A stretch of DNA of 64,000 nt from a virus (IMGVR_UViG_3300029288_000134:22177-86176), one strand, 5' to 3'; positions 12,753 through 30,312 are shown, counted from the first letter of the stretch. Notes: generated from the sequence alone by a model not told the origin. Made by a program: numbers and translations.

Positions 12753-14348
12753 ATGCCATCACCGTTTAGTCTATCTATTGTTGATTCATTTTCAGAGCAA
12801 GAAGTAACCCGTTTAGCAGCTATGCTAAAGGTAGTTGACGACCCCTGGCATGGTGATGGCTGGTTGCCCCGAGATGATGGTTGGAAATATAACCCCTCTG
12901 CCCCTGTACTTGAGTTTTTAGAAAGCCCTGCTCGCTATACTCTTATTGCCGGTGCTCGTGGTTCTGGAAAAACTGCTGGCGGTGCGCAAAAGGCATTCAA
13001 GCGTATACGCAAGGGACTGGACGGAATCGTGCTTTCCCCTTCTATCCCTCACTTCAATACATCCACGCGAGAAGAATTTTGGAAATGGATTCCTTGGGAC
13101 CACGTTGATCATCATTATAAAACAGATAAGATGATCGAGTTTGATACAGGTTCAAAAGTTTACTATGGTGGTATTGAGGACGAGGATAGATGGCGCGGTC
13201 CTAACGTCAATTGGCTATGGTTTGACGAGGCTGCACGCAAGCCAGACAACAAGGCGTGGCTAGTCGCTATCGGTGGCGTGCGTGTTGGCGAAAATCCCGC
13301 TGCTTGGATTACCACTACTCCCAGAGGAAAGAACCACTGGATTTACAATATGTTCATCAAGCAAGAGGTTGATGAGGTTACGCGATCTCTTCTTGACGAG
13401 ATAGGATTCAGTGGAAAACTTTACGAGCATTTCTTTGTATCTATCTTTGACAATAAAGCTAATCTTGACCCCATGTTCCTTGCCTCAATGCTTAGTTCGT
13501 ATACGGGCAAATTCAGAGAACAAGAAATCATGGGCAAGTTTGTTGACTTCAATGGCGAGATTATTAGCCGAGATGCATTTGGCGAGATTGATGCTAAAGA
13601 GATGCCTCCAGTAACTAGCAGGGTTAGATTCTGGGACTTGGCGGCAACAGAGAAAAAACAAGGTGGTTCAGAGGATCCTGACTGGCTCGCTGGCGGGAAA
13701 GTATCACGCACGGCCAACGGGGTATTTTATATTGAGCATATTGAACATGCCCGACTTGATCCCGCTGATGTGGAAACTCGAATAAGGGGAATTGCCCTGA
13801 AGGATGGTATCAATACCGAGATAGGTTTCGAGCAAGAACCTGGTGCGTCTGGCAAGTCGATGGTAAGCGTATATGTTAGAATGCTTGCGGGATTATCAAA
13901 GAAAATCAGGGGATATAGATTGTCAGGAGATAGACTTGCGGCTGCAATGCCCTGGTTCAGTCAGGCTATGGCAGGGAATGTGAAAGTTGTTAAGGGTAAG
14001 TGGAATGAGCCGTTCTATGAAGAATTAGAAAGTTTCCCTGCCGGAGCACACGACGACATGGTAACTTCTCTAAACGGTGCGTTCATGATGCTTTTCCCGA
14101 AATACCGTGAAGAGTTAAGGAAGTATCAGGCAACGGGTGGCACAAGGACATTTATTGATAATCAGGGCGAAGATAGCCCGTATAAGCCCAGAATAAGACA
14201 ACGAGGTTCTGTTCAGTCATCGGAGAGGATGGGTGCGCCCAGAGTCGCAGTTGACCGTACTGAAACTGATTGGCGGTTTTTTGTATCACGAAGAGCAAAG
14301 TTGCCGTTTGATCGCCTGTTTAATAAGGGAGGCGAAAGGAATATATAA
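12753..14348 (+). CDS. terL: terminase large subunit
   Basis: Walker A IAGARGSGKT, Walker B WLWFDEAA, TTTP, nuclease RFWDLAAT, FEQEPGASGK, HDDMVTSL. Confidence 0.92.
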   Translation: MPSPFSLSIVDSFSEQEVTRLAAMLKVVDDPWHGDGWLPRDDGWKYNPSAPVLEFLESPARYTLIAGARGSGKTAGGAQKAFKRIRKGLDGIVLSPSIPHFNTSTREEFWKWIPWDHVDHHYKTDKMIEFDTGSKVYYGGIEDEDRWRGPNVNWLWFDEAARKPDNKAWLVAIGGVRVGENPAAWITTTPRGKNHWIYNMFIKQEVDEVTRSLLDEIGFSGKLYEHFFVSIFDNKANLDPMFLASMLSSYTGKFREQEIMGKFVDFNGEIISRDAFGEIDAKEMPPVTSRVRFWDLAATEKKQGGSEDPDWLAGGKVSRTANGVFYIEHIEHARLDPADVETRIRGIALKDGINTEIGFEQEPGASGKSMVSVYVRMLAGLSKKIRGYRLSGDRLAAAMPWFSQAMAGNVKVVKGKWNEPFYEELESFPAGAHDDMVTSLNGAFMMLFPKYREELRKYQATGGTRTFIDNQGEDSPYKPRIRQRGSVQSSERMGAPRVAVDRTETDWRFFVSRRAKLPFDRLFNKGGERNI

Positions 14349-16018
14349 TGGATTTAATGCCTAAGTTCTTATCTACATATCTAGAAGAGCGTGTAGACAA
14401 GTCAGTTGCGCTTGCTATCAAGCAAGAAGCAGATATTGTGCAGCTAGCAAATAAGGTCAAGTTCTCGCGGCCTGCTCCTAGTTTTATCGAGAAGACAGAG
14501 CTAGGTCTAGATATATCATCGCCAAGAGCTTCTCTAGGTAAATTAGGCGAGTACAAACCAGATGACATTTCTTCTGAGCAGATTGAGGCTATGCGCAAGA
14601 ATGGCATGGTTAAATTCGCGATGGGTATCATTAAATCTCCTGTCATGGGCATTGCTCGCTCTAACCCTGGCGAGGAATGGAGCATGGAGTGTGATAGCGA
14701 GAGACTAAAGAAACTTGCGACGCGCAACTTCAAGTCTATCCGTATGAGTCTTGTGCCACATCAGCTTACCAGCTTGGATTACGGCTTTGCAGTAGGCGAA
14801 AAGGTGTGGAAGTACGAGAGTGGCTCTAAGTTTGGCTCAGATAACAAGAAGTATGTATCGCTAAAGCAGATTAAGCCTAATCACCCAAACACTATTGAGA
14901 TACTCCGCTTAGAGGAAAATGATAAGGCCACTGGAAGGTTCAAGGGTGATTTTGATGGGTATCTTCAGAAGTTGCCAACCAGCAGAGATACAGTACACGT
15001 AAAATATAACGATGCGTTTATCCAGACACATGACAAGGGAAATGTATTTGGGAATCTATACGGAAGTAGTGTTTTGGTATCCGTGTTCCCATTTTGGTAT
15101 TGGTACGAGGTTGTAACGCGGGCGCTTCTTCGTTATCTTGAGCGCAGGGGAACGCCTGTAGTTGTTGTATACGCTCCGTCCAGTGGAACATTATATAACT
15201 CGGAAGACACTGAAATTGCTACGATGGATTATGCGCTTCAGATAGCAATGGATATTGCTCGAACAACTGCCGTCGCATTGCCATCTGACGTTGACCCCGA
15301 GACAAAACAACCTCTTTGGCGAGTTGAGTATCTTCTTGATGATCAACGAGCAGATCAATTCATGGAGGTGATAAAGTGGCTCGGAGAGAAGATCCTAGAG
15401 TCTATTGGTGTTCCCGTGCGTGTAGTGTCTGAACAATCTGGTGGAAGTGCTGCTTATACAGCATATCAGACCAACCTAGACGTGTTTTTGCAGACCGTAG
15501 AGGATATTCTTGATGAGGTTGTTCGACATATCAACTCTTACATTTTGCCAGATTTGGCACGTTACAATTTTGGACAGAATACACCAGAGGTCAATCTGCG
15601 TACCACTGGTATTGACCGCTCTAAATTCAAGCGATTCATCGAGTTAATTGACAGAATGGTTGCAGCAGGAATTGATGTAGGCGTGGATGGCAGGGAAATG
15701 GCTAAGAGTTTGGGGATTCCGGTTTTGCCAGAGGGCGAATCTATGTTGCCGCCCGTACCTACGGCTCCCGCTGCTGCTTCGCCAAGCGCTCCAACTGTTG
15801 GTCATGCTCCTGGTACTGGCAAGGGCGTGAAACAAGGTCCGGTAAGTCAGCGTAAGGGACCGCCAAGGAAGAGTACTACTAAAATGTCTATGGAAATGGA
15901 TACTGAGGAATTGATTAGATTCATAGAAATGCGTGAAAAGGAAGGTAAGCCAATACCGTTTTCGATTGATGATATAGAAAGGGCGGAAAATGCAAGAGTT
16001 CAAGATAGTAATTCATGA
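14348..16018 (+). CDS. portal protein (DUF935 / Mu gp29-like)
   Basis: Directly follows terL. SLDYGFAVGEKVW, GNLYGSSVL..VFPFWYW, LERRGTPVV pattern; Pro/Ala/Gly-rich C-terminal tail. Confidence 0.8.
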   Translation: MDLMPKFLSTYLEERVDKSVALAIKQEADIVQLANKVKFSRPAPSFIEKTELGLDISSPRASLGKLGEYKPDDISSEQIEAMRKNGMVKFAMGIIKSPVMGIARSNPGEEWSMECDSERLKKLATRNFKSIRMSLVPHQLTSLDYGFAVGEKVWKYESGSKFGSDNKKYVSLKQIKPNHPNTIEILRLEENDKATGRFKGDFDGYLQKLPTSRDTVHVKYNDAFIQTHDKGNVFGNLYGSSVLVSVFPFWYWYEVVTRALLRYLERRGTPVVVVYAPSSGTLYNSEDTEIATMDYALQIAMDIARTTAVALPSDVDPETKQPLWRVEYLLDDQRADQFMEVIKWLGEKILESIGVPVRVVSEQSGGSAAYTAYQTNLDVFLQTVEDILDEVVRHINSYILPDLARYNFGQNTPEVNLRTTGIDRSKFKRFIELIDRMVAAGIDVGVDGREMAKSLGIPVLPEGESMLPPVPTAPAAASPSAPTVGHAPGTGKGVKQGPVSQRKGPPRKSTTKMSMEMDTEELIRFIEMREKEGKPIPFSIDDIERAENARVQDSNS

Positions 16019-17006: not shown

Positions 17007-17321
17007 TTGATGTCTGAGTCCGAATTCGGCTATATGGAATGGCGCTGCATATTCTGTGGCTCAATAAATCAAGTGCAACCTCTAGAATGTTGCACTCCAT
17101 GTAGCGGATGCGGATGTGACTGGCAAGATGGTGGAGTATGGACACATGGTGCAGTATACTCTAGACCAAATACGATGGCGGCCTATACTCCGCGTCTTGC
17201 CGGTCCAGTATCTACTACAAGAGCAGAACAAGAACAAGATCCATACTTTGAAATGGAGGGATTTGAAATGGCTAAATGCGGCAGTAAGAGTAAGGGAAAA
17301 AAGAAGGGCAAGAAAAAGTGA
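17007..17321 (+). CDS. zinc-ribbon protein with a Lys-rich tail
   Basis: CIFCG...CCTPCSGCG. An internal GGAGG RBS precedes MAKCGSKSKGKKKGKKK at 17268. Confidence 0.55.
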   Translation: MMSESEFGYMEWRCIFCGSINQVQPLECCTPCSGCGCDWQDGGVWTHGAVYSRPNTMAAYTPRLAGPVSTTRAEQEQDPYFEMEGFEMAKCGSKSKGKKKGKKK

Positions 17322-18004
17322 ATATTGTATTAGGGTCAATCTTTCGCAACAGTACATCTTATCTTAATACTTGCTTCGAGCAATTGGCAATGTTAAACGA
17401 TGAACTTGTTTCTCGTGGTCATTCATTTCGGATGGTTTTTGCCGAAGGTGATAGTGTAGATACTACGCGATACGAGCTAGATAAGTTTGCTAAGGGACGC
17501 AGCATTACCATTATTGACAGATCTCACGGTGGTCCATATTGGTGCAGTGCTGATATTCCCGAGAGGTGGGAATCTCTAGCATGGGTGTGCAATGGAGTAT
17601 TAGAGCAGATTCGAATAGACGACAATGCTTTTATCTATGTCGAATCTGATCTTGTCTGGGATACTAATACAATGCTCGCATTGCTGGATGATTTACAAGA
17701 GAAACCAGCAGTAAGTCCATTAGTATTACATGCAGATGGCTGGTTCTGGGATGGAAATGGTTTTCGCATTGATGGACAGGGTTTCGGTGTTTACCCACCA
17801 TATCATCCCAAATATGTAGAGAATGGGTTTACTCAGATGGGAAGCGTTGGGTCGTGTTGTGTAATGTGGTCAGATATTGGACGATTGTGTAGATTTGCAG
17901 GACCGATAAATCACTGGGTTGCCTTCTGTGATGCAATATATCAAAAAGGGTTCTCGGTGTGGTTGGATTCAACTCAAAAGATTATTCATCCTATAAGGAA
18001 GTAA
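17318..18004 (+). CDS. GT-A fold glycosyltransferase (GT2/Anp1-like)
   Basis: FAEGDSVDTT, DxD-like IYVESDLVW, MGSVGSCCV, VWLDSTQKIIHP. Confidence 0.75.
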   Translation: MNIVLGSIFRNSTSYLNTCFEQLAMLNDELVSRGHSFRMVFAEGDSVDTTRYELDKFAKGRSITIIDRSHGGPYWCSADIPERWESLAWVCNGVLEQIRIDDNAFIYVESDLVWDTNTMLALLDDLQEKPAVSPLVLHADGWFWDGNGFRIDGQGFGVYPPYHPKYVENGFTQMGSVGSCCVMWSDIGRLCRFAGPINHWVAFCDAIYQKGFSVWLDSTQKIIHPIRK

Positions 18005-18005
18005 T

Positions 18006-18704
18006 ATGAGACACGTAATCACAATGACTCACTTTAGGCGACCAGAATACAGCAAGCAAGTTCTAGATGCTTTGCGTAATTGTGTCGGGATTGAGAAATA
18101 TACGATTGTGGCGCATGTTGAACCGGGCGGGCCAGCAGAAGTATGGGATACAGTAAAAAGCATTGATTTTGCAGAATGTGTCCCTGTTCTAAATACCAGT
18201 GTGCTCGGAATAAATATGAATACCTTCGAGGCATTGCGGCATGGATTCAGTCTTTCGGATGTTGATTTTGTTATTCATATTGAAGACGATACTCTCCCAT
18301 CAAAAGACGCACTTGCTTATTTCGAATGGGGAGCAGAAACATATAAAGCTGATCCCGAGATATTAAATATTTCAGGATTTGTGAGAACTACACAACATCA
18401 AGAAAATCCATACCTAGTACATCGAATACCTTATTTTTCGAGTTGGGGATGGGGTACATGGCGTGATCGTTGGGAAGAGCCGGGTGGAATGCTCGAAACC
18501 TGGAATGACTATGCGCGGGATGTTCATATTCATCAGGCTATACGCCGTGACAGAAAAGAAATCTCGGCATATCAGTCAAGAATCCAAAATATTGGAAGAC
18601 TGGGAGGTGCAAATATGGGCGCTGATATTTGGGAGCAATGGGCAAATGTTCCTGCTTTTATTGCAGATCTTGAACCAGGACTATACGAAGAGATTTTAAC
18701 ATGA
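18006..18704 (+). CDS. GT-A fold glycosyltransferase
   Basis: HFRRPEYSKQVLDAL, VIHIEDD, FSSWGWGTWRDRW, SRIQNIG. Confidence 0.8.
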   Translation: MRHVITMTHFRRPEYSKQVLDALRNCVGIEKYTIVAHVEPGGPAEVWDTVKSIDFAECVPVLNTSVLGINMNTFEALRHGFSLSDVDFVIHIEDDTLPSKDALAYFEWGAETYKADPEILNISGFVRTTQHQENPYLVHRIPYFSSWGWGTWRDRWEEPGGMLETWNDYARDVHIHQAIRRDRKEISAYQSRIQNIGRLGGANMGADIWEQWANVPAFIADLEPGLYEEILT

Positions 18705-19363
18705 TTAATGTATTAGTTGCAATTCCAATAAATCCAAATATGAGTAGCTACCTTGCTGGAATGGCCAAGGGAAATGTTACAAAATTTACTGATTTTAATC
18801 CAGGCATGAAGTTTGAATATGCTTTTAACGAACGATTCTATACTGGTGACAACCTTCATGGTTCAAGTCGCCATGCGCAAGCAAGAAATGGCATCCTTGA
18901 TATAGTTCTTTGTCCCGAGCATGATTATATTCTATGGATAGACGCGGATATTATTCTATATCCTGCCGACCTACCAAGTCTTTTATATGGCACAGACAAC
19001 AATGCAGTTGTTGCTCCGCTTGTTTTACGTGAAGGCACAGATGCTTTTTATGACTTCAATGGGTTTATAGAAGCTGGAAATAAACGCATGGCCCGAGTAT
19101 GCCCACCTTATTTTGAGCAGAAAGGACCGATAGTCGAGTTAGACTCTGTTGGATGTGTTTATATGATGCCAGCACTTCCATTTCATAATGGCGTTCGTTA
19201 CAAGACAGTAGATGGGCATACTGAGCATTGGTCGGTAATGGAAGAATATCGCAAACAAGGCCATCGCGTAATTTGTAATAAAGACATTGTAGTTATTCAT
19301 GCTGATCTTCAAAAATATGGCGAAGATTGGCACGATAACAAATCACTGGGAGGGAGTAGATGA
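18701..19363 (+). CDS. GT-A fold glycosyltransferase (Anp1/Mnn9-like)
   Basis: ILWIDADI, VELDSVGCVYM, VIHAD. Confidence 0.8.
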   Translation: MINVLVAIPINPNMSSYLAGMAKGNVTKFTDFNPGMKFEYAFNERFYTGDNLHGSSRHAQARNGILDIVLCPEHDYILWIDADIILYPADLPSLLYGTDNNAVVAPLVLREGTDAFYDFNGFIEAGNKRMARVCPPYFEQKGPIVELDSVGCVYMMPALPFHNGVRYKTVDGHTEHWSVMEEYRKQGHRVICNKDIVVIHADLQKYGEDWHDNKSLGGSR

Positions 19364-19869
19364 AAATAGAAATTGGCTCAGGGGAAAATCCTGATCTTGG
19401 CTATGATATTCACACAGATATGCTAGCGCTGCCTCACGTTGAGTGTATTTGCCCTATGGACAAGATACCATATCCAGATGCTACATTTGATGGACTTAGA
19501 GCAAATGATGTACTGGAGCACCAATCCTGGGAGTTGATTAAGCCGACTCTACTAGAATGGAATCGCATACTCAAACCAGGGGCAGATGTTTTCATTCAGG
19601 TTCCTAATGGCAGACATATTATCCTGATGTATGCAGGTGGAATGTTTACAATCGAACTTGCTAATTACTATCTCATGGGAGGTCACACTGAGCGACCTGC
19701 ATATCGTGGCGTTGACAAGAATAATGTTCCTCTCTGGATATGGAATGCACATCATACATTTTTTGATGATGCTTGGCTTAAAAAGAACCTAGAGGAAACA
19801 GGGTTTACTAATATTCAGATTACCGCTAATGAAATCGGCAATCTTGAGTGTAGGTGTAATAAGTCATGA
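19360..19869 (+). CDS. class I SAM-dependent methyltransferase (type 11-like)
   Basis: KIEIGSG, IPYPDATFD, VLEH, EWNRILKPG. Confidence 0.85.
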   Translation: MKIEIGSGENPDLGYDIHTDMLALPHVECICPMDKIPYPDATFDGLRANDVLEHQSWELIKPTLLEWNRILKPGADVFIQVPNGRHIILMYAGGMFTIELANYYLMGGHTERPAYRGVDKNNVPLWIWNAHHTFFDDAWLKKNLEETGFTNIQITANEIGNLECRCNKS

Positions 19870-20639
19870 TAGATCAGGCATATCCCAATGGAAGCCTTAC
19901 TGTTGAACCTGCAATTTGGGAATCAGACGTTCTTGAAGTTAGGGCTGTAAAGATCAAGGATTTTATAGCACCTTCATACAAGGACGCGCTAGAATTACTG
20001 AAACCCATTATTTCGAGGGGTTCGTTTGATTTTATAAGTATTGATTGTTCTAATTTGTCATCGTACTATCTTGTAGCGCTTGAAGATGCCGGATTCCACA
20101 TTGGATCTCATTACACAGATTATCTTATCGAGATAAATGACAATGCTCTAAAGTTGATGGAGTCATATAGAGGTAGGTATAATATACGCCAAATGCGGCC
20201 ATCTGATTCCAGCAGCGTTTCCAAGATAGCATCTGATGCATTCGATACTGGCAGATTTATGGCTGATCCACATTTCCCAGATGGATGGGGAGAGAAATTG
20301 TATGGTGCATGGGGCGAAAACTCCTGCAAGGGCTATGCCAGCGCCGGGGTTGTATGCTTGTCGCAGGACAAGATAATTGGTTTTATGACAGCAAGGGAAC
20401 ATGATTCTGCTCGGGCAGATATGGACCTAATCGCGGTATCCAAAGAGTTTGTTGGAATGGGAGTCGGGGCATCTTTATTGGCAGAGATGATATACAGGCT
20501 AGATGAAAGGTTTATTGATAGTGCAATTGCCAGGACAGAGAGATGTAATCAAGAAATCAACGGCATGTATGAGTTTTTCAGATTCCCAATTATCAATACT
20601 GGAATAGTTATGCATTGGGTTAAGAAAGGATTAAGCTAG
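19866..20639 (+). CDS. GNAT N-acyltransferase, WecD (dTDP-fucosamine acetyltransferase)-like
   Basis: GRFMADPHF...KLYGAWGENSCKG, acyl-CoA motif LIAVSKEFVGMGVGASL, MYEFFRF. Confidence 0.75.
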   Translation: MIDQAYPNGSLTVEPAIWESDVLEVRAVKIKDFIAPSYKDALELLKPIISRGSFDFISIDCSNLSSYYLVALEDAGFHIGSHYTDYLIEINDNALKLMESYRGRYNIRQMRPSDSSSVSKIASDAFDTGRFMADPHFPDGWGEKLYGAWGENSCKGYASAGVVCLSQDKIIGFMTAREHDSARADMDLIAVSKEFVGMGVGASLLAEMIYRLDERFIDSAIARTERCNQEINGMYEFFRFPIINTGIVMHWVKKGLS

Positions 20640-20640
20640 A

Positions 20641-20913
20641 ATGAACAAACAAGAAGCACTAGGTATTATTTACAAAGTAATTGACAGTAGCGAGTGGCCG
20701 CTAGAAAAGAAAGAGGACTCTGTTATATTCGGAAAGAACGCAACACTAGATTCACTTGGCGTTGTATCGTTCATTATTGACGTAGAGATAGAGTTAAGAG
20801 CAGCAGGGTCGCCGCTGATATTGGCAAACGATAAGGCTATGTCGCGTTACACGAGTCCATTCAGAAATGTTGGCGTACTTGCTGATTATATCGTGGAGTT
20901 GACCAATGATTGA
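20641..20913 (+). CDS. acyl carrier protein
   Basis: 90 aa; phosphopantetheine site LDSLGVVSFI. Confidence 0.85.
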   Translation: MNKQEALGIIYKVIDSSEWPLEKKEDSVIFGKNATLDSLGVVSFIIDVEIELRAAGSPLILANDKAMSRYTSPFRNVGVLADYIVELTND

Positions 20914-21607
20914 TACCCCTGTTATGCTTATTACGGGTGCAACTAGCGGAATAGGAAAGTTTCTTGCTGAAGGTTATTCTTTCACAGAGAGATACAAGGT
21001 AATTGGTTGTGGCAGAAGAGATCCTATTGATCTTGGAAGTGTTCGCTACTATCAGCTAGATGTTTCTGATGAGCAAGCTGTGGTGGATATGCTTAGTGAC
21101 GCATATTCGTTGTACGGCAGACTAGATATTGTAATTAACAACGCTGGCGTTGCTTCCATGAACCACTTTCTAACTACGCCGATCAGTAGTTTCGACAAGG
21201 TGTTTGAGACTAACGTCAAGGGAACGTTTCTGGTGAGCCGAGAGGCTGCGAAGCTGATGAAATCACATGGCGGCAGGATAGTCAACTTCACATCAATAGC
21301 AGTCCCTTTTTCCCTAACAGGAGAGTCTGTTTATACAGCATCCAAGACAGCGATTGAGTCTCTCACAAAAGTAATGGCCCGAGAGCTTGCACCGTTAGGA
21401 ATTACCGTAAATGCCGTTGGTCCATGCCCTATAGCAACCGACTTACTAAAGAATGTACCGGAAGACAAGATTGATACCATTCTGAGCAGCCTTGCAATTC
21501 ATGAGTATGGCATGGAAGCAGATGTACTTAACGTTATAGATTTCTTTATCAATCCAAAAAGCAATATGATTACTGGTCAAGTCATCTATTTAGGTGGTGC
21601 ATTTTGA
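20906..21607 (+). CDS. SDR oxidoreductase, FabG-like 3-oxoacyl-ACP reductase
   Basis: ITGATSGIG, INNAG, YTASK, ITVNAVGP, ITGQVIYLGG. Confidence 0.88.
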   Translation: MIDTPVMLITGATSGIGKFLAEGYSFTERYKVIGCGRRDPIDLGSVRYYQLDVSDEQAVVDMLSDAYSLYGRLDIVINNAGVASMNHFLTTPISSFDKVFETNVKGTFLVSREAAKLMKSHGGRIVNFTSIAVPFSLTGESVYTASKTAIESLTKVMARELAPLGITVNAVGPCPIATDLLKNVPEDKIDTILSSLAIHEYGMEADVLNVIDFFINPKSNMITGQVIYLGGAF

Positions 21608-22863
21608 GTATAGAATGGTTTCTTGATCGTATGCGCACTTTTGGCAACCGTGATGCGATTATTCTACAGGACCGAGATTGTGTTGCTACTTATAATGACC
21701 TGCTCGACGAAATAGATAGACAAAAACCTGCCCCGTTATCAAGTTTTGCTATGGATGACCCCGTATCTGACATTGCACTCATGCTGTCTGCAATAAACAA
21801 GGGCTATGTAGTTGTTCCGTTGCCTAAGTTTGACACGAGGCGCGATAGAAAAATAGAACTTGTTGCAGGCTCTCTTGATTTTATTGATGAGGTAGTGCTG
21901 CCAGGAAAACCTGCGCTTGTAGTGTTCACAAGTGGGTCAACGGGCGATGAAAAGGCGATTCTGTTTGCAGCAGAACAAATGATGGAACGTTATAGACAAC
22001 TGTATCCACCGAGGACTAGGTTGTCATTTTTGCAATTGGATCATCTCGGCGGGATTCATACTGTATTATACACCTTGTCTAACGGCGGAACCATTGTTGT
22101 TCCAAGGGATAGAAATCCACAAACTATTTGCGAGGCAATAGAGAAGTATAAAATAGAGGCGCTTCCTGTAACACCGACATTTCTAAATATACTTCTTGCG
22201 TCTGAGGCATATAAGGAATACGATCTTTCTTCTTTAAGAGTTGTTACATATGGAACTGAGGTTATGCCCGAGTCTGTACTGAAAAGAATAAGCAGGGAAT
22301 TGCCATACGTTAAGTTTAAGCAAACTTATGGATTATCAGAGCTAGGTGTAATGCACGTAAAGTCCAGGGACTCAGTTTCTACTTGGATCAAGATTACAGA
22401 TGATAAATACGAAGCAAAAATACAGGATGGGACATTATGGGTGCGTACAGAATTTGCTATGAAGGCGTATCTTAATGCACCTAATCCATTTGATCACGAG
22501 GGTTGGTTTAATACACACGATAAAGTTGAGTTTGATGGCGAGTGGATGAGGATACTTGGCAGAGACACGGACATCATTAACGTTGGTGGATTAAAAGTGT
22601 ACCCAGTCGAGGTCGAGAACGTGTTATTAGATATGCCTGGAGTTATTGATGCATTGGTTGATGGTATATCAAATCCATTCACTGGAAACGCCGTTGCCGT
22701 AACATTGCAAATAGAAGAGCGATTTGACGCAACTATTATCAAGAAAAGAGTCAGGGATTTTTGCAAAGGGAAACTAGAGTCATACAAAATCCCGGTATTA
22801 GTAGATGTTACAACTGTGCCACTTACTGGACCTAGATGTAAAAAGATAAGGACTGTTGTGTAG
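21604..22863 (+). CDS. adenylate-forming (AMP-binding) acyl-ACP/CoA ligase
   Basis: VFTSGSTGDEKA, QTYGLSE, GWFNTHD, GRDTDIINVGG.KVYP.EVE, YKIP. Confidence 0.88.
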   Translation: MSIEWFLDRMRTFGNRDAIILQDRDCVATYNDLLDEIDRQKPAPLSSFAMDDPVSDIALMLSAINKGYVVVPLPKFDTRRDRKIELVAGSLDFIDEVVLPGKPALVVFTSGSTGDEKAILFAAEQMMERYRQLYPPRTRLSFLQLDHLGGIHTVLYTLSNGGTIVVPRDRNPQTICEAIEKYKIEALPVTPTFLNILLASEAYKEYDLSSLRVVTYGTEVMPESVLKRISRELPYVKFKQTYGLSELGVMHVKSRDSVSTWIKITDDKYEAKIQDGTLWVRTEFAMKAYLNAPNPFDHEGWFNTHDKVEFDGEWMRILGRDTDIINVGGLKVYPVEVENVLLDMPGVIDALVDGISNPFTGNAVAVTLQIEERFDATIIKKRVRDFCKGKLESYKIPVLVDVTTVPLTGPRCKKIRTVV

Positions 22864-23570
22864 TGCAAACACTAGGAGCAGTAATAGTAAGCGAACATGC
22901 AGATTTACTAGAATCTGTATTGCTATGGATGAGAGATACCGAGTTATTTGATCAGATAGTAGCAGTTGCAGATGTTAAGGGAGGGCCTGATACTGAACGT
23001 GTTGCGCATGAACTTGCTGATATATCTACCGTGATGAACGTTCCTCATCAGGGCGCGGTATTGGATGCTGCTTTTCTACTCTGTAACACAGACTGGGTTT
23101 TTCGCATGGATGATGACGAAAGAATGGGAACGCTTTTTGTGGAAGGTGTGCGCAATCTTATAGAGCGAGATATGCATGACGTATATCATTTTCCGCGCTA
23201 TTGGCTTTGGCCAGACACAACACATTATATTAGTAATGGATGTTGGGTATATAACGAGGATAGACAAACTAGACTTTGGAAGAGAGGTTGTGTAGGATCG
23301 CAAGGTTCAATTGACCCAGGGGCCGTTCACGTTGACCTGGTTCCGAAGCCAAATTCAAGAACTGCTGTAAATGCACTAGACTGGCATATCTTTCATTATG
23401 TCCTGCTTACTCCTTATGAAGAAAGATTGAAAAAGGTGGCTCGATATGCACAAATAGAAAATGTCCCGCTAGGGGATTATAGAAAAAGAATAGGCCAGTT
23501 CTACTTACCTGAAGATTCTAATAACGTTGAGGTTGGCCATTGTACCGAATGGCCTTGGGGTATATTATGA
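22863..23570 (+). CDS. GT-A fold glycosyltransferase (GT2, WaaE-like)
   Basis: DWVFRMDDDE, QTRLWK, VHVDL, HIFHY; GTG start. Confidence 0.75.
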   Translation: MQTLGAVIVSEHADLLESVLLWMRDTELFDQIVAVADVKGGPDTERVAHELADISTVMNVPHQGAVLDAAFLLCNTDWVFRMDDDERMGTLFVEGVRNLIERDMHDVYHFPRYWLWPDTTHYISNGCWVYNEDRQTRLWKRGCVGSQGSIDPGAVHVDLVPKPNSRTAVNALDWHIFHYVLLTPYEERLKKVARYAQIENVPLGDYRKRIGQFYLPEDSNNVEVGHCTEWPWGIL

Positions 23571-24082
23571 TAGATACAAGCAATGCACTAAAAATAGATG
23601 GGTGGATGTTTGACGATGAACTAGAGTGGTTAGCGCAACAAGCACAAAAGCATCAGAATATTCTAGAAATAGGTTCGTGGAAGGGTCGTTCTACTCGCGC
23701 ATTAGGAGACAATACCCCTGGAAGAGTTTGGGCGGTTGATTATTGGCTAGAACATGATTGCGAAATGAGACAGTTCCTTGAGAATTTGTCGGATCTGATT
23801 ATTGCCGAAAGGGTAATAGTGATGCGCACAACCAGTAATAACGTAACTACTATGTTGCACAATACGCACCGCTCCTTCTTTGATATGATATTTTTAGATG
23901 GCGACCACTGTTACGAATCTGTAAAATCCGACATCTCAAATTGTATTCCGTTATTATCCCCTGGAGGCATATTGTGTGGACATGATTATTCTGTTGCATG
24001 GGAGGGGGTGATGCGGGCAGTTGAAGAGATTCTGCCGAACTTCTATTTACACAATACTATCTGGTACAAGGAGATCAAATGA
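23567..24082 (+). CDS. class I SAM-dependent methyltransferase (Methyltransf_24-like)
   Basis: ILEIGSWKGRST, DMIFLDGDHCYE, LSPGGILCGHDY; likely start MIDTSNAL. Confidence 0.85.
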   Translation: MIDTSNALKIDGWMFDDELEWLAQQAQKHQNILEIGSWKGRSTRALGDNTPGRVWAVDYWLEHDCEMRQFLENLSDLIIAERVIVMRTTSNNVTTMLHNTHRSFFDMIFLDGDHCYESVKSDISNCIPLLSPGGILCGHDYSVAWEGVMRAVEEILPNFYLHNTIWYKEIK

Positions 24083-25062
24083 GGGTATTAGTTACTGGAA
24101 ATCTTGGTTATCTAGGTAGCGTTGCAACGAGTATGCTGCACGAGAACAATCACGATGTTCTAGGAATTGATATGGATATATGTGCTATTTATCCCGAACA
24201 CGAATATGATATTCGCGTTATTGATTGGGACAAATATCTGCCATATGTCGATGCTGTTGTTCATCTAGCGGGTGTATCTAATGATCCCGCTTGTGAACTT
24301 GATGACTCGCTTACTTACGATATAAATAATGCGGCAACGATTGTGTTGATAGAGGCGGTAAATAGATGCCCCAATATCAAGAAGTTCGTGTTTGCTAGTT
24401 CTGCAAGCGTGTACGGCTCTAGTGAGGAAGTATCAACAGAGTCATCAAGGCTATCCCCAATTTCTGCTTATGCACTTAGCAAGCGTATGGGGGAACAACG
24501 GATACTTGGCTATCTAGACGGGCGCATTCGACCAACCATACTAAGACTCGGGACATTATTTGGGAAGTCTATCTATAGGCAAAGGTTCGATCTAGCAATT
24601 AACTTAATGGTCAAGGATGCCGTTCTTAACAATGAGATTAAGGTATATGGTGGCGATCAATGGAGGCCGTTTCTTCACGTTAATGATGCCGCGAGTGCAA
24701 TTTTATTTGCATTAACAGATAACAGGATAGTAGATTCAAGTATATATAATGTGGCAATATCCAATATCAAAATAAGCGATCTTGCCGTACTTATTAAAAA
24801 CAGACTAGATTCTATGGGCTATCACGGCATTAATATAAATACATTTTCGCTTGATGATCAGCGTAATTATCGCCTTGATTGTTCACTAATAAAGAGTATT
24901 GGATTTGATCCTTTGCACACTATTGATATGGGGATATGGGAAATGTCTTTACTAATAAAAGATATGGTTACAGGTGGGTACAATCTGGAAGATTCACGAT
25001 ACTACACAATAAAACTATGGAAAAAGTGGGTGGAGAAATATGGAACGAATCCCGTTCTCTAA
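24079..25062 (+). CDS. NAD-dependent NDP-sugar epimerase/dehydratase (extended SDR)
   Basis: VLVTGNLGYLG, VVHLAG, FASSASVYG, YALSK, LRLGTLFG, WRPFLHV.D. Confidence 0.9.
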   Translation: MRVLVTGNLGYLGSVATSMLHENNHDVLGIDMDICAIYPEHEYDIRVIDWDKYLPYVDAVVHLAGVSNDPACELDDSLTYDINNAATIVLIEAVNRCPNIKKFVFASSASVYGSSEEVSTESSRLSPISAYALSKRMGEQRILGYLDGRIRPTILRLGTLFGKSIYRQRFDLAINLMVKDAVLNNEIKVYGGDQWRPFLHVNDAASAILFALTDNRIVDSSIYNVAISNIKISDLAVLIKNRLDSMGYHGININTFSLDDQRNYRLDCSLIKSIGFDPLHTIDMGIWEMSLLIKDMVTGGYNLEDSRYYTIKLWKKWVEKYGTNPVL

Positions 25063-26152
25063 ACCATCTATAAATCAAGATGACATAGACGCCGTATCTG
25101 ATGTCATGCGCTCGGGATGGCTGACAATAGGTAACGAAGTAGCTTCTTTCGAGCAAGAGCTTGCAGAACGACTTGGTGTCGAGTATGTGATATGCGTAGA
25201 CTCATGTACGTCTGCCCTGACCCTAGCTATAGAATCATACATGCCATTTTCTGGTAAGATATGTATTCCAGCATTGTCATTTATAGCAACAGCAAACACT
25301 GTAGTAAAAGCTGGCGGCGAGAATAACTTAGTGTTTTGTGATGTTGGTTGTGATGGCAATATTAACCCTAACAAAATACCAAAAGATGCGGAGATTGTTA
25401 TTCCGGTTCACTATGCTGGCCAACCATGTAATATGGATGATATTGTTTTTGGAAGAACAGTGATAGAGGATGCCGCACATGCATTCGGCGCAACGTACAA
25501 CAACGCCATAGTTGGCGCTGCTAGTTACCGTGATTATCAAACTACATGCTGTTTTTCATTTTACCCCACCAAGCCAATGACTACAGGGGAAGGCGGGTGT
25601 ATTACTACTAATTATGAACGAATAGCTAATTATGCAAGAAGCATGTCGTTGCACGGACTAAGTGCTGGTCATGCGAATAGGTACGAGAGATCAAGCAGAA
25701 ATCATCCAGTCGTTGAGCAACGTCCTGGTTACAAAATGAATATGACTAACATCGCAGCGGCCCTTGGGAGACAACAGCTTAAACGACTCGATTACATGCT
25801 TGCGGCGCGTAGAAAAATAGTTGCACGTTACCAGGACGAATTATGGAGCACGGTAGAGTGTCTGCCATTTGCTGACTTCACAGGTCACGCATGGCATATC
25901 TTTGTAATCCTAGTAGATAACCGAGATGATGTTGCACAGAAACTTGACAGTCTCGGGATTGGAACTGGTGTGCATTATAATCCACCGTTACATCTTCATC
26001 CTTGGTATCAGAAAAAATATGGGCACGTTACAGGAGATTTTCCTGTTGCGGAAAGGATTGCAAAACGATGTCTTAGCTTGCCACTATTCCCAGATATGAC
26101 AGATCAACAAGTAGAACGAGTAATTAAAGCAGTAAAATCAATTGTTGGCTAA
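25040..26152 (+). CDS. DegT/DnrJ/EryC1/StrS PLP-dependent sugar aminotransferase
   Basis: SGWLTIG, PVHYAGQPC, IEDAAHAFG, FSFYPTKPMTTGEGG (PLP Lys), GYKMNM, LSLPLFP. Confidence 0.93.
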   Translation: MERIPFSKPSINQDDIDAVSDVMRSGWLTIGNEVASFEQELAERLGVEYVICVDSCTSALTLAIESYMPFSGKICIPALSFIATANTVVKAGGENNLVFCDVGCDGNINPNKIPKDAEIVIPVHYAGQPCNMDDIVFGRTVIEDAAHAFGATYNNAIVGAASYRDYQTTCCFSFYPTKPMTTGEGGCITTNYERIANYARSMSLHGLSAGHANRYERSSRNHPVVEQRPGYKMNMTNIAAALGRQQLKRLDYMLAARRKIVARYQDELWSTVECLPFADFTGHAWHIFVILVDNRDDVAQKLDSLGIGTGVHYNPPLHLHPWYQKKYGHVTGDFPVAERIAKRCLSLPLFPDMTDQQVERVIKAVKSIVG

Positions 26153-26200
26153 GTATAATTGTTCTGACAACGATTATACTTTCAATGCAAAAAGTATAAT
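26151..26200 (+). promoter_or_regulatory. possible internal promoter/operator with three aagtataat-type motifs
   Basis: aagtataat (26151-59), inverted copy attatactt (26173-81), aagtataat (26192-200). Followed by a GGGAGG RBS. Confidence 0.45.
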
Positions 26201-26213
26201 TTAGGGAGGACAC

Positions 26214-27083
26214 ATGAAGGTATATGCCGAGATAGAAGAAGTATTAGGCATTGGATTACATCGTGTACAGTATGAAATCAAGCATCACGCACCGCCTGGA
26301 ATTGAGTTTGTTGACAACATAGAAGAAGCAGACTTGCAGATTGTTCCCGTAATAGGGCTTGGTAGCCTTGAGTTCATCAAGCATCCAAGTCATGTACTGT
26401 TACAGTATTGTTACATGACCGCCGAGAGACAGGATCCCGAGTTCTGGTTGCCCATCTTCCAAGAAGCGAAAATGGTATTCAGCTATTACGATCTTCCGAG
26501 CTATGTAGGATCTAGCGATTTCAACTTCTTGCACTCTCCGCTCGGAGTTGATATGGAAGTGTTTCAAGATCGCAAGTTGTCAATAGTTCCAAGGGACTTT
26601 ATTGTTGCAACTTCTGGATACGAGCCATTTGGCGAGGCTATTAAGGAATGCTATCAAGCTGCGCGTATCTTAAAGAAAAAGATATTTCACCTTGGTCCAG
26701 GTCTAGATCATGATAGATTCCAGCCGTGGGTAGGCGCTGGCTTTGTTGCGCACAGCGGTATTAGTGACACTGATCTTGCTCGGATGTATAGTAGATCTAA
26801 GTATGTTTCTGGCCTACGATTCGGAGAGGGTTTTGAGTTGCCTGTAATTGAGGGATTTGCTTGTGGTGCTCGACCTATTTGTTTTGACTTGCCCGTATAT
26901 CGTCAGTGGTTTAATGACTTCGCTGTATTCGTTCCTCATATAAGAGACGATGATCTGATGTATGCATTGGTAGAGATATTTAATACAGATAGACCAGTAA
27001 CGGCGGAAGAGTTGCAAATATGCAAAGAGCGTTTTAGTTGGGATGTGGTAATACAAAAATTCTGGGAGAGGGCGCTAGAATAA
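26214..27083 (+). CDS. GT-B fold glycosyltransferase (GT4-like)
   Basis: HSPLGVD, EGFELPVIEGFACG, FSWD. Confidence 0.82.
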   Translation: MKVYAEIEEVLGIGLHRVQYEIKHHAPPGIEFVDNIEEADLQIVPVIGLGSLEFIKHPSHVLLQYCYMTAERQDPEFWLPIFQEAKMVFSYYDLPSYVGSSDFNFLHSPLGVDMEVFQDRKLSIVPRDFIVATSGYEPFGEAIKECYQAARILKKKIFHLGPGLDHDRFQPWVGAGFVAHSGISDTDLARMYSRSKYVSGLRFGEGFELPVIEGFACGARPICFDLPVYRQWFNDFAVFVPHIRDDDLMYALVEIFNTDRPVTAEELQICKERFSWDVVIQKFWERALE

Positions 27084-28402
27084 TGTCTAAGAAAATCAAA
27101 GTATTGTGTTGGTCTGACAGTCCCGCTGTCACAACAGGGTTTGGTGTTGTGGCAAAAGAATTATATAAAGGTTTTCATGACGCGGGAATGGAAGTTGTTG
27201 CAATGGGTACCCTTGCTACGCCGCTAGTTGACAACAGTAATTTGCCATATCGCGTGATCAATGCCTGTCAACATGATCCAGAGATGTATGAACTTGCTCC
27301 TGCGATTGTTAGCATGGAGAAGCCTGACGTTGTATTTATTCTTGCAGATCCAGGTACGGCATATAACCGAATAGGAAAGTTGTTTTCCGATACACCTGTT
27401 GTGGCATACTTTCCCATTGAGGGATCGCCCGTATCTACACGTTATCTAGATTTCATTCGAGATGTAATACATCGTGGTGGATCAGCGGTAACATATACGA
27501 AATGGGGAGCGGATACAATATCGCTGTTCTCAGGTGGAATACTCAAGATTCCGTACATCTACCACGGAGTAGATCATGCTGGCTGGAAACCCATAGAGCC
27601 TGAATTACGTAAACATATGCGTAAAGTTGTGGGATGGGACGACAAGTTTGTGGTTACTTTTCGTGGTCGTAACAAGGGCGTAAAAATGCAGTTGTCTCTG
27701 ATGCACGCAATGCACCAGCTAGTTCACGTTAAGAAACGAGATGACATCTTGCTATATCTGCATTGTAAGCCGTTCGAAGAATATCTAATGCAGGGCTGGA
27801 ATTTACTAGAGTGGAAAAAGAATCTTGGTCTATCAGAGAATCTCTTATTTCCACAGGATATGTATAATCAGCTTGATGGTGTTCCGTTCGACAGTAACAA
27901 GATTACCGATTGGAATAATGTTAAAGTAAGTGATGATCCCAAGGTGCGCGGATTGAATTTCATTGATATGGATTTATGTGAGAGAACAGCACTTGCTGAT
28001 CTATTTATTGACCCTGCTTCAATAGAGGGATTTGGATTGCCCGCGCTTGAAGCTGCTGCGTGTGGTGTACCAGTAGCTACAGTAAATGACTCGGGAGTGA
28101 GAAGCGAGATATTTGGCGATAATGCATACTTCATGGAACCCATTACTGAAACTCGCTGGCACACGGGTGCTGCTTTGAAGATTGTGGCTGAGGATACTAT
28201 CGGTAGCACGATTGAGCTTTTCTCTAAAAACGAGAAGTTGTGCAAGGAGTATGGTGAGCTTGGCCTAGAAAGAAGCAAGGATTTCAGATGGGATAACGCA
28301 CGAGAATCCATGACTAAGTTAGTAGAGCAAGCGTCAGGGAAGAATACCGGACAGGCAATGTGGTTTAATAACCTATTGGGAGGGATGAGTGGGAATCAAT
28401 AG
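27083..28402 (+). CDS. GT-B fold glycosyltransferase (GT4-like)
   Basis: TTGFGVVAKEL, IYHGVD, EGFGLPALEAAACG, FRWD. TAATG coupling suggests a start at 27083. Confidence 0.88.
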   Translation: MSKKIKVLCWSDSPAVTTGFGVVAKELYKGFHDAGMEVVAMGTLATPLVDNSNLPYRVINACQHDPEMYELAPAIVSMEKPDVVFILADPGTAYNRIGKLFSDTPVVAYFPIEGSPVSTRYLDFIRDVIHRGGSAVTYTKWGADTISLFSGGILKIPYIYHGVDHAGWKPIEPELRKHMRKVVGWDDKFVVTFRGRNKGVKMQLSLMHAMHQLVHVKKRDDILLYLHCKPFEEYLMQGWNLLEWKKNLGLSENLLFPQDMYNQLDGVPFDSNKITDWNNVKVSDDPKVRGLNFIDMDLCERTALADLFIDPASIEGFGLPALEAAACGVPVATVNDSGVRSEIFGDNAYFMEPITETRWHTGAALKIVAEDTIGSTIELFSKNEKLCKEYGELGLERSKDFRWDNARESMTKLVEQASGKNTGQAMWFNNLLGGMSGNQ

Positions 28403-28842: not shown

Positions 28843-30312
28843 ATGCCAGAAGTAACTGAGAACTATGTGCATATACCAGTTCGTGGAGATGATCAATTTG
28901 TAGAAGGTTCAATTAGAACAATAGTCATCTCGGCCAGTCAGGGAATAAGGGCCCTGATCGGAAAGTTGAAATCGGATCCACAAGGTTCCACTAAGATCAA
29001 AACATACTTGTTCTCAACTGCGAAGTGGAACATGGAAAAAGCTAAAGCCTGGGTATCCAAGCACAAGCTAGAGGACGTGAATATGGATCAAAACATAGAA
29101 GATATTGTAGTTATGGAAGATGTTTCATACGATGAACTTCAAAATGAAATAATCGCAGCCTGGGAAGAGGGTCAATATACAAGTAATCCTGTTCCCCAAA
29201 TGAGAGGCGCATATGTAAGTAAAGTATATAAGGATTATATTATAACTCACCTTGAAGGCAAGCTATACAAGGTTGCCTATAGTAAAAAGGGAGACAAGAT
29301 AGAATTCAGCGAACCAGAAGAAGTGGAGATGAAAGTGGAGTATGTTAAGGCGGATATGCCCTTTGATTATGTTGCCTTGATCGAGCTAGAGGAAGATGGT
29401 TCCCCTGTTCAGTGGATACAAATGCACGAAGAGGGGGAATGGGAGCATCCAGAATATGGAACGCTTTCCATGACCAAGAGCAAGATCAATGCAATGATCA
29501 AGAACTTCAACGAAAAACTACTTGGATATGAACCTTCAGGGAACTTGCATCATGACAAGAGTCCTGCTCAGGGATGGGTGAAGGAGCTTGCTTATAAGAA
29601 CAAGAAACTGATGGGAAAAGTCGAGTGGACAAAGGAGGGGATTGCAAATATCCGCGATAAACTATACCGATACATTTCCCCAGAATACAAGGAAGATCAC
29701 GAGGGGAAAGGGGCCTTGTTTGTAGGATTCGCACTCACCAACAAGCCATTCCTTCCAGGCCAAAAGCCACTGGTATGTTCAATGGATGTACAAACTCAGT
29801 TGTTTGAATCAAGATTAGCTACTAAGAAGGAGTTACAAATGCCCGAGAAAAATACTGTCGTAGAAGATCCGAAGATTACTACGCCGGATCCAGTTGTGCC
29901 TGTTGTACCAGTTGTTACTCTTAGCGCCGAAGACATTGCGGTTTTAAAGATGGAAGCTGCAAAGGTCAAGGTTCTCGAAGAGCAACTTGTCAAGATGGAG
30001 TCTGATGCAAAGAAAGCAGAGATCGCTGCAATGTGCGATAAGGCTGCTAGTCGTGGCGTTGATCCGTTCACGATTAACAGCGTCAGCGCAATGCTTGTGG
30101 CTCTGCAACGTAACGGTGAAGATGTGGTCATGCTCGAAGAGGGCGCTGCTCCCGTTAATATGTATCGTGCTCTATCTCAATTTTTGCAGAACGTTACTGG
30201 GCCAATCAAAACCGAAGAGCAGACTCAGATCGACAACGAGAAGCCGAATCTGAATCTTAGCGACGAGGCTGATTACACCCAAGAAGACGTTGATTCGTTC
30301 ATGAAGGTTTAA
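28843..30312 (+). CDS. prohead protease/scaffold (Mu GpI-like) with N-terminal extension
   Basis: WIQMHEEGEWEHP.YG, GNLHH, AQGWV, VEWT, YRYISPEY, GFALTNKPF; acidic coiled-coil C-terminus. Confidence 0.78.
   Translation: MPEVTENYVHIPVRGDDQFVEGSIRTIVISASQGIRALIGKLKSDPQGSTKIKTYLFSTAKWNMEKAKAWVSKHKLEDVNMDQNIEDIVVMEDVSYDELQNEIIAAWEEGQYTSNPVPQMRGAYVSKVYKDYIITHLEGKLYKVAYSKKGDKIEFSEPEEVEMKVEYVKADMPFDYVALIELEEDGSPVQWIQMHEEGEWEHPEYGTLSMTKSKINAMIKNFNEKLLGYEPSGNLHHDKSPAQGWVKELAYKNKKLMGKVEWTKEGIANIRDKLYRYISPEYKEDHEGKGALFVGFALTNKPFLPGQKPLVCSMDVQTQLFESRLATKKELQMPEKNTVVEDPKITTPDPVVPVVPVVTLSAEDIAVLKMEAAKVKVLEEQLVKMESDAKKAEIAAMCDKAASRGVDPFTINSVSAMLVALQRNGEDVVMLEEGAAPVNMYRALSQFLQNVTGPIKTEEQTQIDNEKPNLNLSDEADYTQEDVDSFMKV

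Follow-up and report, generated by a model that had tools for sequence, protein, structure and literature searches.

A putative carrier-protein-dependent sugar N-acylation cassette in the head-module glycan island of an uncultured phage

The 64,000-nucleotide (nt) stretch of viral DNA analyzed here, IMGVR_UViG_3300029288_000134:22177-86176 (hereafter, the window), carries four consecutive genes for a GNAT N-acyltransferase, a stand-alone acyl carrier protein (ACP), a short-chain dehydrogenase/reductase (SDR), and an adenylate-forming ligase. They lie within a glycan island inserted among the head genes of a phage (Table 1). A first-pass annotation had placed four open reading frames (ORFs) on the plus strand at this locus and assigned a domain to each, and all four positions and the GNAT, carrier, SDR, and ligase assignments hold. 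We state the gene identities with high confidence. The genes are closely joined: the GNAT and carrier genes are separated by a 1-nt gap, the carrier and SDR genes overlap by 8 nt, and the SDR and ligase genes overlap at a TTGA sequence. Whether the four genes together make up a carrier-protein-dependent line for sugar N-acylation within the island is, in our estimate, evenly balanced, and the evidence on both sides is set out below.

Table 1. Coordinates of the four-gene module (first four lines) and of other features in the window
Feature	Position	Strand	Details
Two-domain WecD-like GNAT N-acyltransferase, 257 amino acids (aa)	19866-20639	+	Pfam Acetyltransf_1, E 4e-7, residues 136-236
Predicted divergent stand-alone ACP, 90 aa	20641-20913	+	Predicted phosphopantetheine site Ser38 in LDSLG
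Classical FabG-like SDR, 233 aa	20906-21607	+	adh_short, E 1e-43; FabG TIGR01830, E 4e-43
Compact ANL adenylate-forming ligase, 419 aa, TTG start	21604-22863	+	AMP-binding PF00501, E 2e-29; AMP-binding_C PF13193, E 4e-7
Large terminase TerL	12753-14348	+	
Mu-type portal	14348-16018	+	
Glycan island, 14 genes	17318-28402	+	Contents include 5 or 6 glycosyltransferase-like genes, 2 methyltransferases, and 1 unknown
Extended-SDR nucleoside diphosphate (NDP)-sugar dehydratase/epimerase	24079-25062	+	Pfam Epimerase, E 9e-44
DegT/ArnB/PseC-type aminotransferase	25040-26152	+	DegT_DnrJ_EryC1, E 8e-93; PseC TIGR03588, E 1.5e-86; PDB ArnB, E 3e-54
289-aa protein and following 454-aa GT4 gene	26214-28402		289-aa protein: short match to phrog_2170 and phrog_4356 only
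Head maturation protease	28843-30312	+	
Major head protein	30726-31859	+	
HNH endonuclease	38137-38871		phrog_8446, E 6e-29
Tape measure	39808-43839	+	

The product of the carrier gene reads, in part, NATLDSLGVVSF and contains NATLDSLGVV. Searched alone, this protein had no match in Pfam (including PF00550) or NCBIfam and only chance matches in the PDB, and a word-based homologue search returned three relatives. An exhaustive profile search gathered a family of 2176 representatives at E <= 1e-3, 495 of them at E <= 1e-10. Residues D37, S38, and P73 are invariant in 52 aligned family members, which share an ERAMS...SPFR...LADYI signature, and 14 of these 52 relatives match PF00550 (best E 6e-5). 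The family profile reaches ACPs in the PDB (2lki and 2l4b, E ~6e-4) with its serine aligned with the ACP DSL serine, and its matches also include D-alanyl carrier proteins.

Structure prediction points the same way. The AlphaFold 2 (AF2) model of the carrier (pLDDT 83) is a four-helix bundle, with helices at residues 3-16, 38-54, 64-69, and 77-89, which places Ser38 at the N-terminus of helix II. The top 50 Foldseek matches are all ACPs, DltC proteins, or peptidyl carrier proteins, and when the model was aligned to 48,161 chains with VIA-align, the top 50 were all carrier proteins (Z 6.5-9.3; root-mean-square deviation 2.1-3.1 Å over 71-81 residues). MacpD from mupirocin biosynthesis (6tg5) matched at Z 8.3. 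Based on the model and the family profile, we accept the 90-aa protein as a predicted member of the carrier superfamily, in a divergent ACP subfamily that the Pfam model misses; sequence, fold, and profile thus agree with the earlier description of a carrier with an LDSL serine site. The subfamily as a whole, with its invariant DS...P, is largely missed by Pfam PP-binding and unannotated in databases, and modules of this kind are under-annotated as a result.

Two related metagenomic phage contigs (L125 and L126) retain the order methyltransferase-GNAT-carrier-SDR. Compared with these contigs, dN/dS in the window is 0.04-0.05 for the carrier and 0.10-0.12 for the GNAT, and both genes are under strong purifying selection.

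The SDR has the full classical catalytic set (TGATSGIG, NNAG, and S...YTASK), and a GCGRRD basic pair after strand 2 suggests that it is probably NADPH-dependent. The TTG start of the ligase is confirmed because its homologues align from residue 1. The enzyme retains every column that is invariant in 22 homologues, including the SGSTG..K motif, K117, and the terminal K413, and the core motifs GW.NT.D and GR...IN.GG.KV.P.EVE are also present. It has thousands of bacterial homologues of ~448 aa at 45-48% identity. Its best PDB match is 4-chlorobenzoate-CoA ligase (E 2e-23), and its identity to solved ANL enzymes is low. By analogy with better-known relatives, we propose that it loads the carrier protein and that the SDR would then reduce the carrier-bound acyl group.

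The phage ligase lacks two N-terminal segments of 9 and 21 aa, a feature that distinguishes it from the ligases of the bacterial cassettes described below. Other viral ligases are also shortened (331 aa at L006:6493-7488 and 311 aa at L010:6607-7542), and one is split at the N-terminus into two ORFs of 153 and 370 aa (L007:6157-7727). Such changes may mean that the enzyme can do without its N-terminal subdomain, or that the viral copies are degenerating.

The carrier, SDR, and ligase form a cassette that is widespread in bacteria, and we are highly confident that the phage genes belong to it. In a scan of one genome per species, at least 583 species had a relative, and we examined the best 80 loci. 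The contigs of the ~448-aa bacterial ligase homologues show the same gene order within polysaccharide loci: a small protein that Pfam does not recognize comes first, then an SDR of 234 aa, then the ligase. The small protein aligns with the phage carrier. The three genes are collinear and tightly packed (type A) in 40 of the best 80 loci. In at least 14 of them the SDR instead lies downstream of the ligase (type B), and one type B locus, the myxobacterial L003, adjoins polyketide synthase (PKS) and AfsA genes. Bacterial type A cassettes, genomically the closest counterparts, resemble the phage set in gene order, in sequence (50-54% identity for the same-position SDR, 45-48% for the ligase, and ~40-50% for the carrier), and in the kinds of genes beside them, aminotransferases and N-acyltransferases.

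The first-pass annotation had placed such trios in bacterial surface-glycan loci, and these 40 loci bear this out, as do the enterobacterial flagellin glycosylation islands, in which genes for an Acp, a CaiC-type ligase, and FabG have been described (PMC4875605). As published, the gene content of the enterobacterial sets resembles that of the phage trio. Our literature search returned nothing useful on a characterized glycan-linked trio or on Cj1307/Cj1308.

ACP-based chemistry in a phage structural operon was described earlier as very unusual, and the module is indeed rare in phages. Scanning IMG/VR by ligase alignment yielded eight loci, all with the type A trio, and a terminase gene lies within a few kilobases in three of the eight. 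Exact peptides taken from the phage ligase had no match in IMG/VR, and megablast of the island DNA against 50,697 GenBank phage records also found nothing. A tblastn search of the same records with the ligase gave matches at <=28% identity only, none with the cassette and none a real homologue. We suspect that several of these weak matches, which sit in very large or unannotated multi-record "phage" entries, are not phage DNA. On these searches, the module appears to be absent from cultured phages and present in a few uncultured ones.

The neighbours of the cassette point to chemistry on sugar amines. An LbH acyltransferase adjoins the trio in 21 of the 48 type A loci and is thus a common partner. 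A Pfam-less protein of ~490 aa follows the ligase in 21 of the 48 (L001:9344-10828, L024:3707-5194, and 19 other bacterial loci) and has a weak match (E 3e-16) to the VimE model of NCBIfam; VimE is a UDP-2,3-diacetamido-2,3-dideoxyglucuronate deacetylase. This resemblance would imply a logic of deacetylation followed by reacylation. Other recurrent neighbours are DegT aminotransferases, WecB, and GT2 enzymes, with DegT genes flanking the cassette in L006, L010, L019, L044, L054, and L060. In two IMG/VR loci with a terminase gene nearby (L007:3951-9582 and L012:6786-12726), the trio lies within a nonulosonic-acid gene set (NeuB, CMP-cytidylyltransferase, and a PseH-like GNAT), which would imply phage-encoded synthesis of an acylated nonulosonic acid; a large fusion protein of Antibiotic_NAT and DUF4910/DUF2172 (+HTH_47) follows this set in both. 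Because these recurrent neighbours free, create, or acylate sugar amines, they are the main support for the trio as an acyl donor line for amino-sugar N-acylation.

The phage differs from most bacterial loci in its partners. Bacterial cassettes mostly pair with LbH acyltransferases and the VimE-like deacetylase, whereas the window pairs the trio with a WecD-like GNAT, and the amine would come from the phage's own aminotransferase. A GNAT of this kind stands immediately upstream of the carrier gene in only three of about 49 cassette loci: the window, the bacterial locus L076, and the phage contig L006. The order GNAT-carrier-SDR-ligase is therefore found in three unrelated genomes. The GNAT in L076 is 29% identical to that of the window (E 6e-14), including the AF..GR..ADP.FP region, and the one in L006, a Pfam GNAT, is 24% identical (E 7e-4).

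Contig L006 (L006:135-9611; IMGVR_UViG_3300028603_003152) encodes a portal protein (Phage_portal_3), MuF, GT2, DegT, GNAT, carrier, SDR, the 331-aa ligase, and a second DegT protein. Its portal family differs from the Mu-type portal of the window, and its gene order makes it a second, unrelated phage with the four-gene arrangement just after the portal. At its end lies a split transketolase, with the N-terminal and pyrimidine-binding halves as separate genes, which suggests that the sugar undergoes an additional two-carbon transfer.

The GNAT itself is WecD-like in predicted layout only. NCBIfam WecD models align over residues 12-216 (E 1.6e-11), far under the curated cut-off: the protein scores 44.5 bits against 219 for NF008212 and 31.1 against 195 for TIGR02382, the WecD/RffC equivalogs. 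Its sole PDB match is WecD (2fs5, E 0.003), and a word-based homologue search found only two close relatives. It shares with WecD (RffC), a dTDP-4-amino-4,6-dideoxygalactose N-acetyltransferase, the two-domain arrangement of an N-terminal domain and a GNAT domain, and the AF..GRF.ADP.FP regions of the two proteins align. The donors would differ, with an acyl-carrier proposed for the phage enzyme and acetyl-CoA used by WecD. As the only recognizable acyltransferase in the island, the GNAT is our proposed catalyst for moving the carrier-bound acyl group to an NDP-amino sugar.

An alternative is that the GNAT is an ordinary acetyl-CoA N-acetyltransferase and that the product of the trio reaches another glycan position, or a protein, through an unrecognized transferase, perhaps a 228-aa or the 289-aa protein. 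WecD, which the GNAT resembles, is an acetyl-CoA enzyme, and a WecD-like GNAT so seldom adjoins the trio that this reading gains some weight; moreover, all island genes are tightly packed, so the adjacency of GNAT and trio is weak evidence by itself. We nevertheless regard it as quite unlikely. No second recognizable acyltransferase is present in the island, the trio elsewhere is nearly always beside some N-acyltransferase (LbH, Antibiotic_NAT, or GNAT), and the four-gene order recurs in the three unrelated genomes. Complexes between GNAT and carrier proteins are also known; one of them, 8zt4, was among the VIA-align matches of the carrier.

What acyl group the proposed line would make depends on the relatives of the ligase. 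The phage enzyme is 43.8% identical to the PKS-linked ligase of L003, and a protein search of plasmids matched it to the ligase of the thiomarinol plasmid pTML1 (38.9% identity over 94% of its length). By sequence comparison it belongs to the MupQ/TmlQ clade (39-44% identity) and not with DltA. On pTML1 the genes after that of the ligase encode an SDR, an ACP, and a ketosynthase-type PKS, in the layout described for macpD/mupQ/mupS/mmpF. MupQ, MupS, and MacpD make 3-hydroxypropionyl-ACP from malonyl-CoA, the SDR reducing a CoA thioester, according to Winter et al., recounting Walker 2020 (PMC10098928). Labelling experiments traced the side chain of thiomarinol to a 4-hydroxybutyrate starter derived from succinate (PMC4685789). 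Characterized members of the clade thus load a dicarboxylyl-CoA on a dedicated ACP, and the partner SDR then reduces the CoA thioester to an alcohol.

The MupQ/MupS/MacpD set, with its short hydroxyacyl-ACP product (PMC10098928), is the biochemically closest known system. Like TmlQ/TmlS/TacpD, it has the same three dedicated parts as the phage: an ANL ligase, a classical SDR, and a stand-alone ACP. The two arrangements differ in several respects. The gene order is carrier-SDR-ligase in the phage and ligase-SDR-carrier in the mupirocin/thiomarinol cassette; the phage set lies in a glycan island rather than with a PKS; and the proposed destination of the acyl group is an amino sugar, via the GNAT, rather than a ketosynthase. 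The phage SDR is 27% identical to TmlS, and the phage carrier has no recognizable sequence similarity to the PKS-type carrier.

Because the ligase falls in the MupQ/TmlQ clade, conversion of a keto acid to a 3-hydroxyacyl group is only one of two live chemistries. The first-pass annotation had the ligase load an acid on the ACP, the reductase make a hydroxyacyl group, and the GNAT transfer it to the amino sugar. The general plan of ligase, SDR, and acyltransferase fits the neighbourhoods described above, while its keto-acid step now has a competitor. In either case the product would be a short hydroxyacyl-carrier; one route would start from a dicarboxylyl-CoA and the other from a keto acid, and they would place the hydroxyl group at different positions.

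In the keto-acid version, the ligase would load a free 3-oxo or keto acid such as acetoacetate, the SDR would yield an (R)-3-hydroxyacyl-carrier such as 3-hydroxybutanoyl, and the GNAT would N-acylate the sugar. The best curated matches of the SDR are FabG and acetoacetyl-CoA reductase models, and it matches FabGs in the PDB at E 4e-32. The nonulosonic-acid setting of the trio in L007 and L012 fits as well, and of the unusual N-acyl groups that bacterial amino sugars and nonulosonic acids carry, 3-hydroxybutanoyl is the most common. We consider the route unlikely, because the nearest characterized relatives of the ligase use malonyl-CoA rather than keto acids, the island has no ketosynthase, and free 3-oxo acids are scarce, unstable metabolites.

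A scheme resembling the Dlt system seems to us very improbable. In it, an amino acid or a plain acid would be activated by the ligase, and the substrate of the SDR would be a sugar 4-keto group rather than an acyl group. D-alanyl carrier proteins are among the carrier's Foldseek and profile matches, and N-aminoacyl amino sugars do occur in bacterial glycans. Against this, the SDR is of the classical FabG type rather than of the extended type that acts on NDP-sugars, its gene keeps its place between those of the carrier and the ligase in 48 loci, where stop and start codons overlap, the ligase groups with MupQ/TmlQ and not DltA, and the island already holds an extended SDR for sugar chemistry.

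Phylogenies of the two enzymes add to this picture. The SDRs of type A cassettes are monophyletic with support 0.99. When 29 paralogues from one genome were included, the glycan-type and PKS-type SDRs each formed a monophyletic clade, and both were neighbours of FabG. The SDR of the window pairs with that of L006 in the larger tree and not in the thinned tree with paralogues; the larger tree had one outgroup and so cannot address whether the two cassette types are sisters. The midpoint-rooted ligase tree has long viral branches, which make it uninformative about origin.

Taken together, these lines of evidence lead to the following proposal for the dicarboxylyl-CoA route. A host phosphopantetheinyl transferase (PPTase) would convert the 90-aa carrier to its holo form at Ser38. 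The MupQ-type ligase would adenylate a small carboxylate and join it to the carrier as a thioester; by analogy with MupQ and TmlQ, the substrate that we favour is the free carboxyl group of a dicarboxylyl-CoA, e.g. malonyl- or succinyl-CoA. The NADPH-type SDR would reduce the distal carbonyl to give a short hydroxyacyl-carrier of the 3-hydroxypropanoyl or 4-hydroxybutanoyl type, or, if the substrate were a 3-oxo acid instead, a 3-hydroxyacyl-carrier. The WecD-like GNAT would then use this acyl group to N-acylate an NDP-amino sugar, which the dehydratase/epimerase and DegT aminotransferase of the island would make from a host NDP-sugar. Finally, the soluble glycosyltransferases and methyltransferases of the island would assemble the glycan in the cytoplasm, where its acceptor would most likely be a virion protein. 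We infer the substrate, the group reduced by the SDR, the use of acyl-ACP by the GNAT, and the glycan target, and our confidence in the identity of the acyl group and in the target is low.

There are precedents for parts of this scheme. With LpxA and LpxD, and with the RfbK-O tetronate set of Vibrio cholerae O1, an ACP thioester donates a hydroxyacyl group to a hydroxyl or amine of a sugar, as proposed here, and the V. cholerae set also includes a dedicated ACP and AMP-ligase in an O-antigen locus. Both differ from the phage module in transferase fold (LbH) and in reductases, and none is known to be phage-borne. The parts of the phage module are familiar; what appears to be new is the combination of the trio with a GNAT, its location among the head genes of a phage, and the product predicted for it.

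Several observations weigh against the proposal. The GNAT resembles a known acetyl-CoA enzyme and is a rare partner of the trio, as noted above, and its AF2 model (pLDDT 55) is too poor for a fold search or for inspection of the donor pocket. At 27% identity, the window SDR is about as close to FabG as to TmlS. In the tree with paralogues, a group that joins the glycan-type to the PKS-type SDRs receives support of just 0.14 and takes in two further paralogues, which speaks neither for nor against a sister relationship; the glycan-type and PKS-type carriers do not detect each other by sequence. Last, the record that contains the window, a linear 86,176-bp IMG/VR virus, is estimated by CheckV to be ~72% complete.

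The content of the island constrains where the proposed line would act. The island lies between the portal, from which a few small ORFs separate it, and the protease and major head protein genes, so that its glycosyltransferase genes are embedded among head genes. Its dehydratase/epimerase and DegT aminotransferase are together the likely source of the amino-sugar acceptor. No sugar nucleotidyltransferase was found in the whole record, so host NDP-sugars must feed the pathway. Nor was any ACPS-family PPTase found there, in agreement with the earlier observation that none was visible, and five other cassette-bearing viral records, one of them complete, likewise lack one; the carrier therefore requires a host PPTase. 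No membrane segment was predicted in any island protein (the maximum 19-residue Kyte-Doolittle hydropathy is <1.5 throughout), and the island must consequently act in the cytoplasm. It also contains no flippase, polymerase, or polyprenyl-phosphate (priming) transferase.

We judge glycosylation of virion proteins, as read from gene content and position, to be the most likely role of the island. This target is favoured because of the head-module position in both the window and L006, the lack of membrane or export genes, and the lack of a DNA hydroxymethylase in the record. DNA hypermodification and surface polysaccharide export were each considered as roles for the island and set aside, the former because no thymidylate-synthase-type enzyme is present in the ~72% complete record and the latter because the island has no membrane proteins.

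Our reading of the module could still be correct with a glycan destined for phage DNA, a host envelope precursor, or a non-structural protein. Phage glycosyltransferases also hypermodify DNA and alter host serotype, as reviewed in PMC12619734, and no glycosylation site motif is readable in the capsid or tail proteins. We give such targets a low, though appreciable, probability. Both here and in L006 the genes lie within the head module, the record yields no thymidylate-synthase-type hydroxymethylase, and the priming, polymerizing, flipping, and membrane-embedded components of an envelope pathway are missing from the island.

Among tailed phages, the nearest parallel is in mycobacteriophages, which carry glycans on capsid and tail-tube subunits (Freeman et al. 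2023, as cited in PMC12619734). Their virion glycosylation loci place glycosyltransferase genes beside structural genes, as here. The island in the window adds to this arrangement a full amino-sugar pathway with a predicted carrier-protein acyl donor. The mycobacteriophage loci, by comparison, reportedly hold glycosyltransferases and methyltransferases only.

Two further genes in the window are worth recording. The 289-aa protein near the end of the island may be a diverged or truncated second GT4-like gene product: the 454-aa GT4 gene directly after it, with a 46-nt overlap, belongs to the same phrog_2170 and phrog_4356 families. The HNH endonuclease gene falls midway through the tail module, with the head-tail genes on one side and the tape measure gene on the other.

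Our overall hypothesis is that this phage decorates its own virion with a glycan bearing an amino sugar that is N-acylated by a short hydroxyacyl group, made on a phage carrier by a MupQ/MupS-like cassette, with the GNAT taking acyl-carrier rather than acyl-CoA. Taken as a whole this is tentative, and we consider it possible but somewhat doubtful. Until now, the acylation chemistry that it invokes was known from bacteria alone. A few mycobacteriophages are known to have glycosylated virions, with effects on immune recognition; the glycan made by the island described here would be far more elaborate, and its acyl donor line is of a kind not known from phages. The trio is very common in bacterial surface-glycan loci, where annotations give only "fatty acid-CoA ligase / FabG / hypothetical," and its tie to the defined MupQ/MupS/MacpD cassette gives it a concrete, testable chemistry. 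With four small soluble proteins beside amino-sugar enzymes of its own, the compact phage version lends itself to working that chemistry out. If the hypothesis is true, it would provide the first thiotemplated step in phage virion glycosylation and the first function for a cassette found in thousands of bacterial glycan loci.

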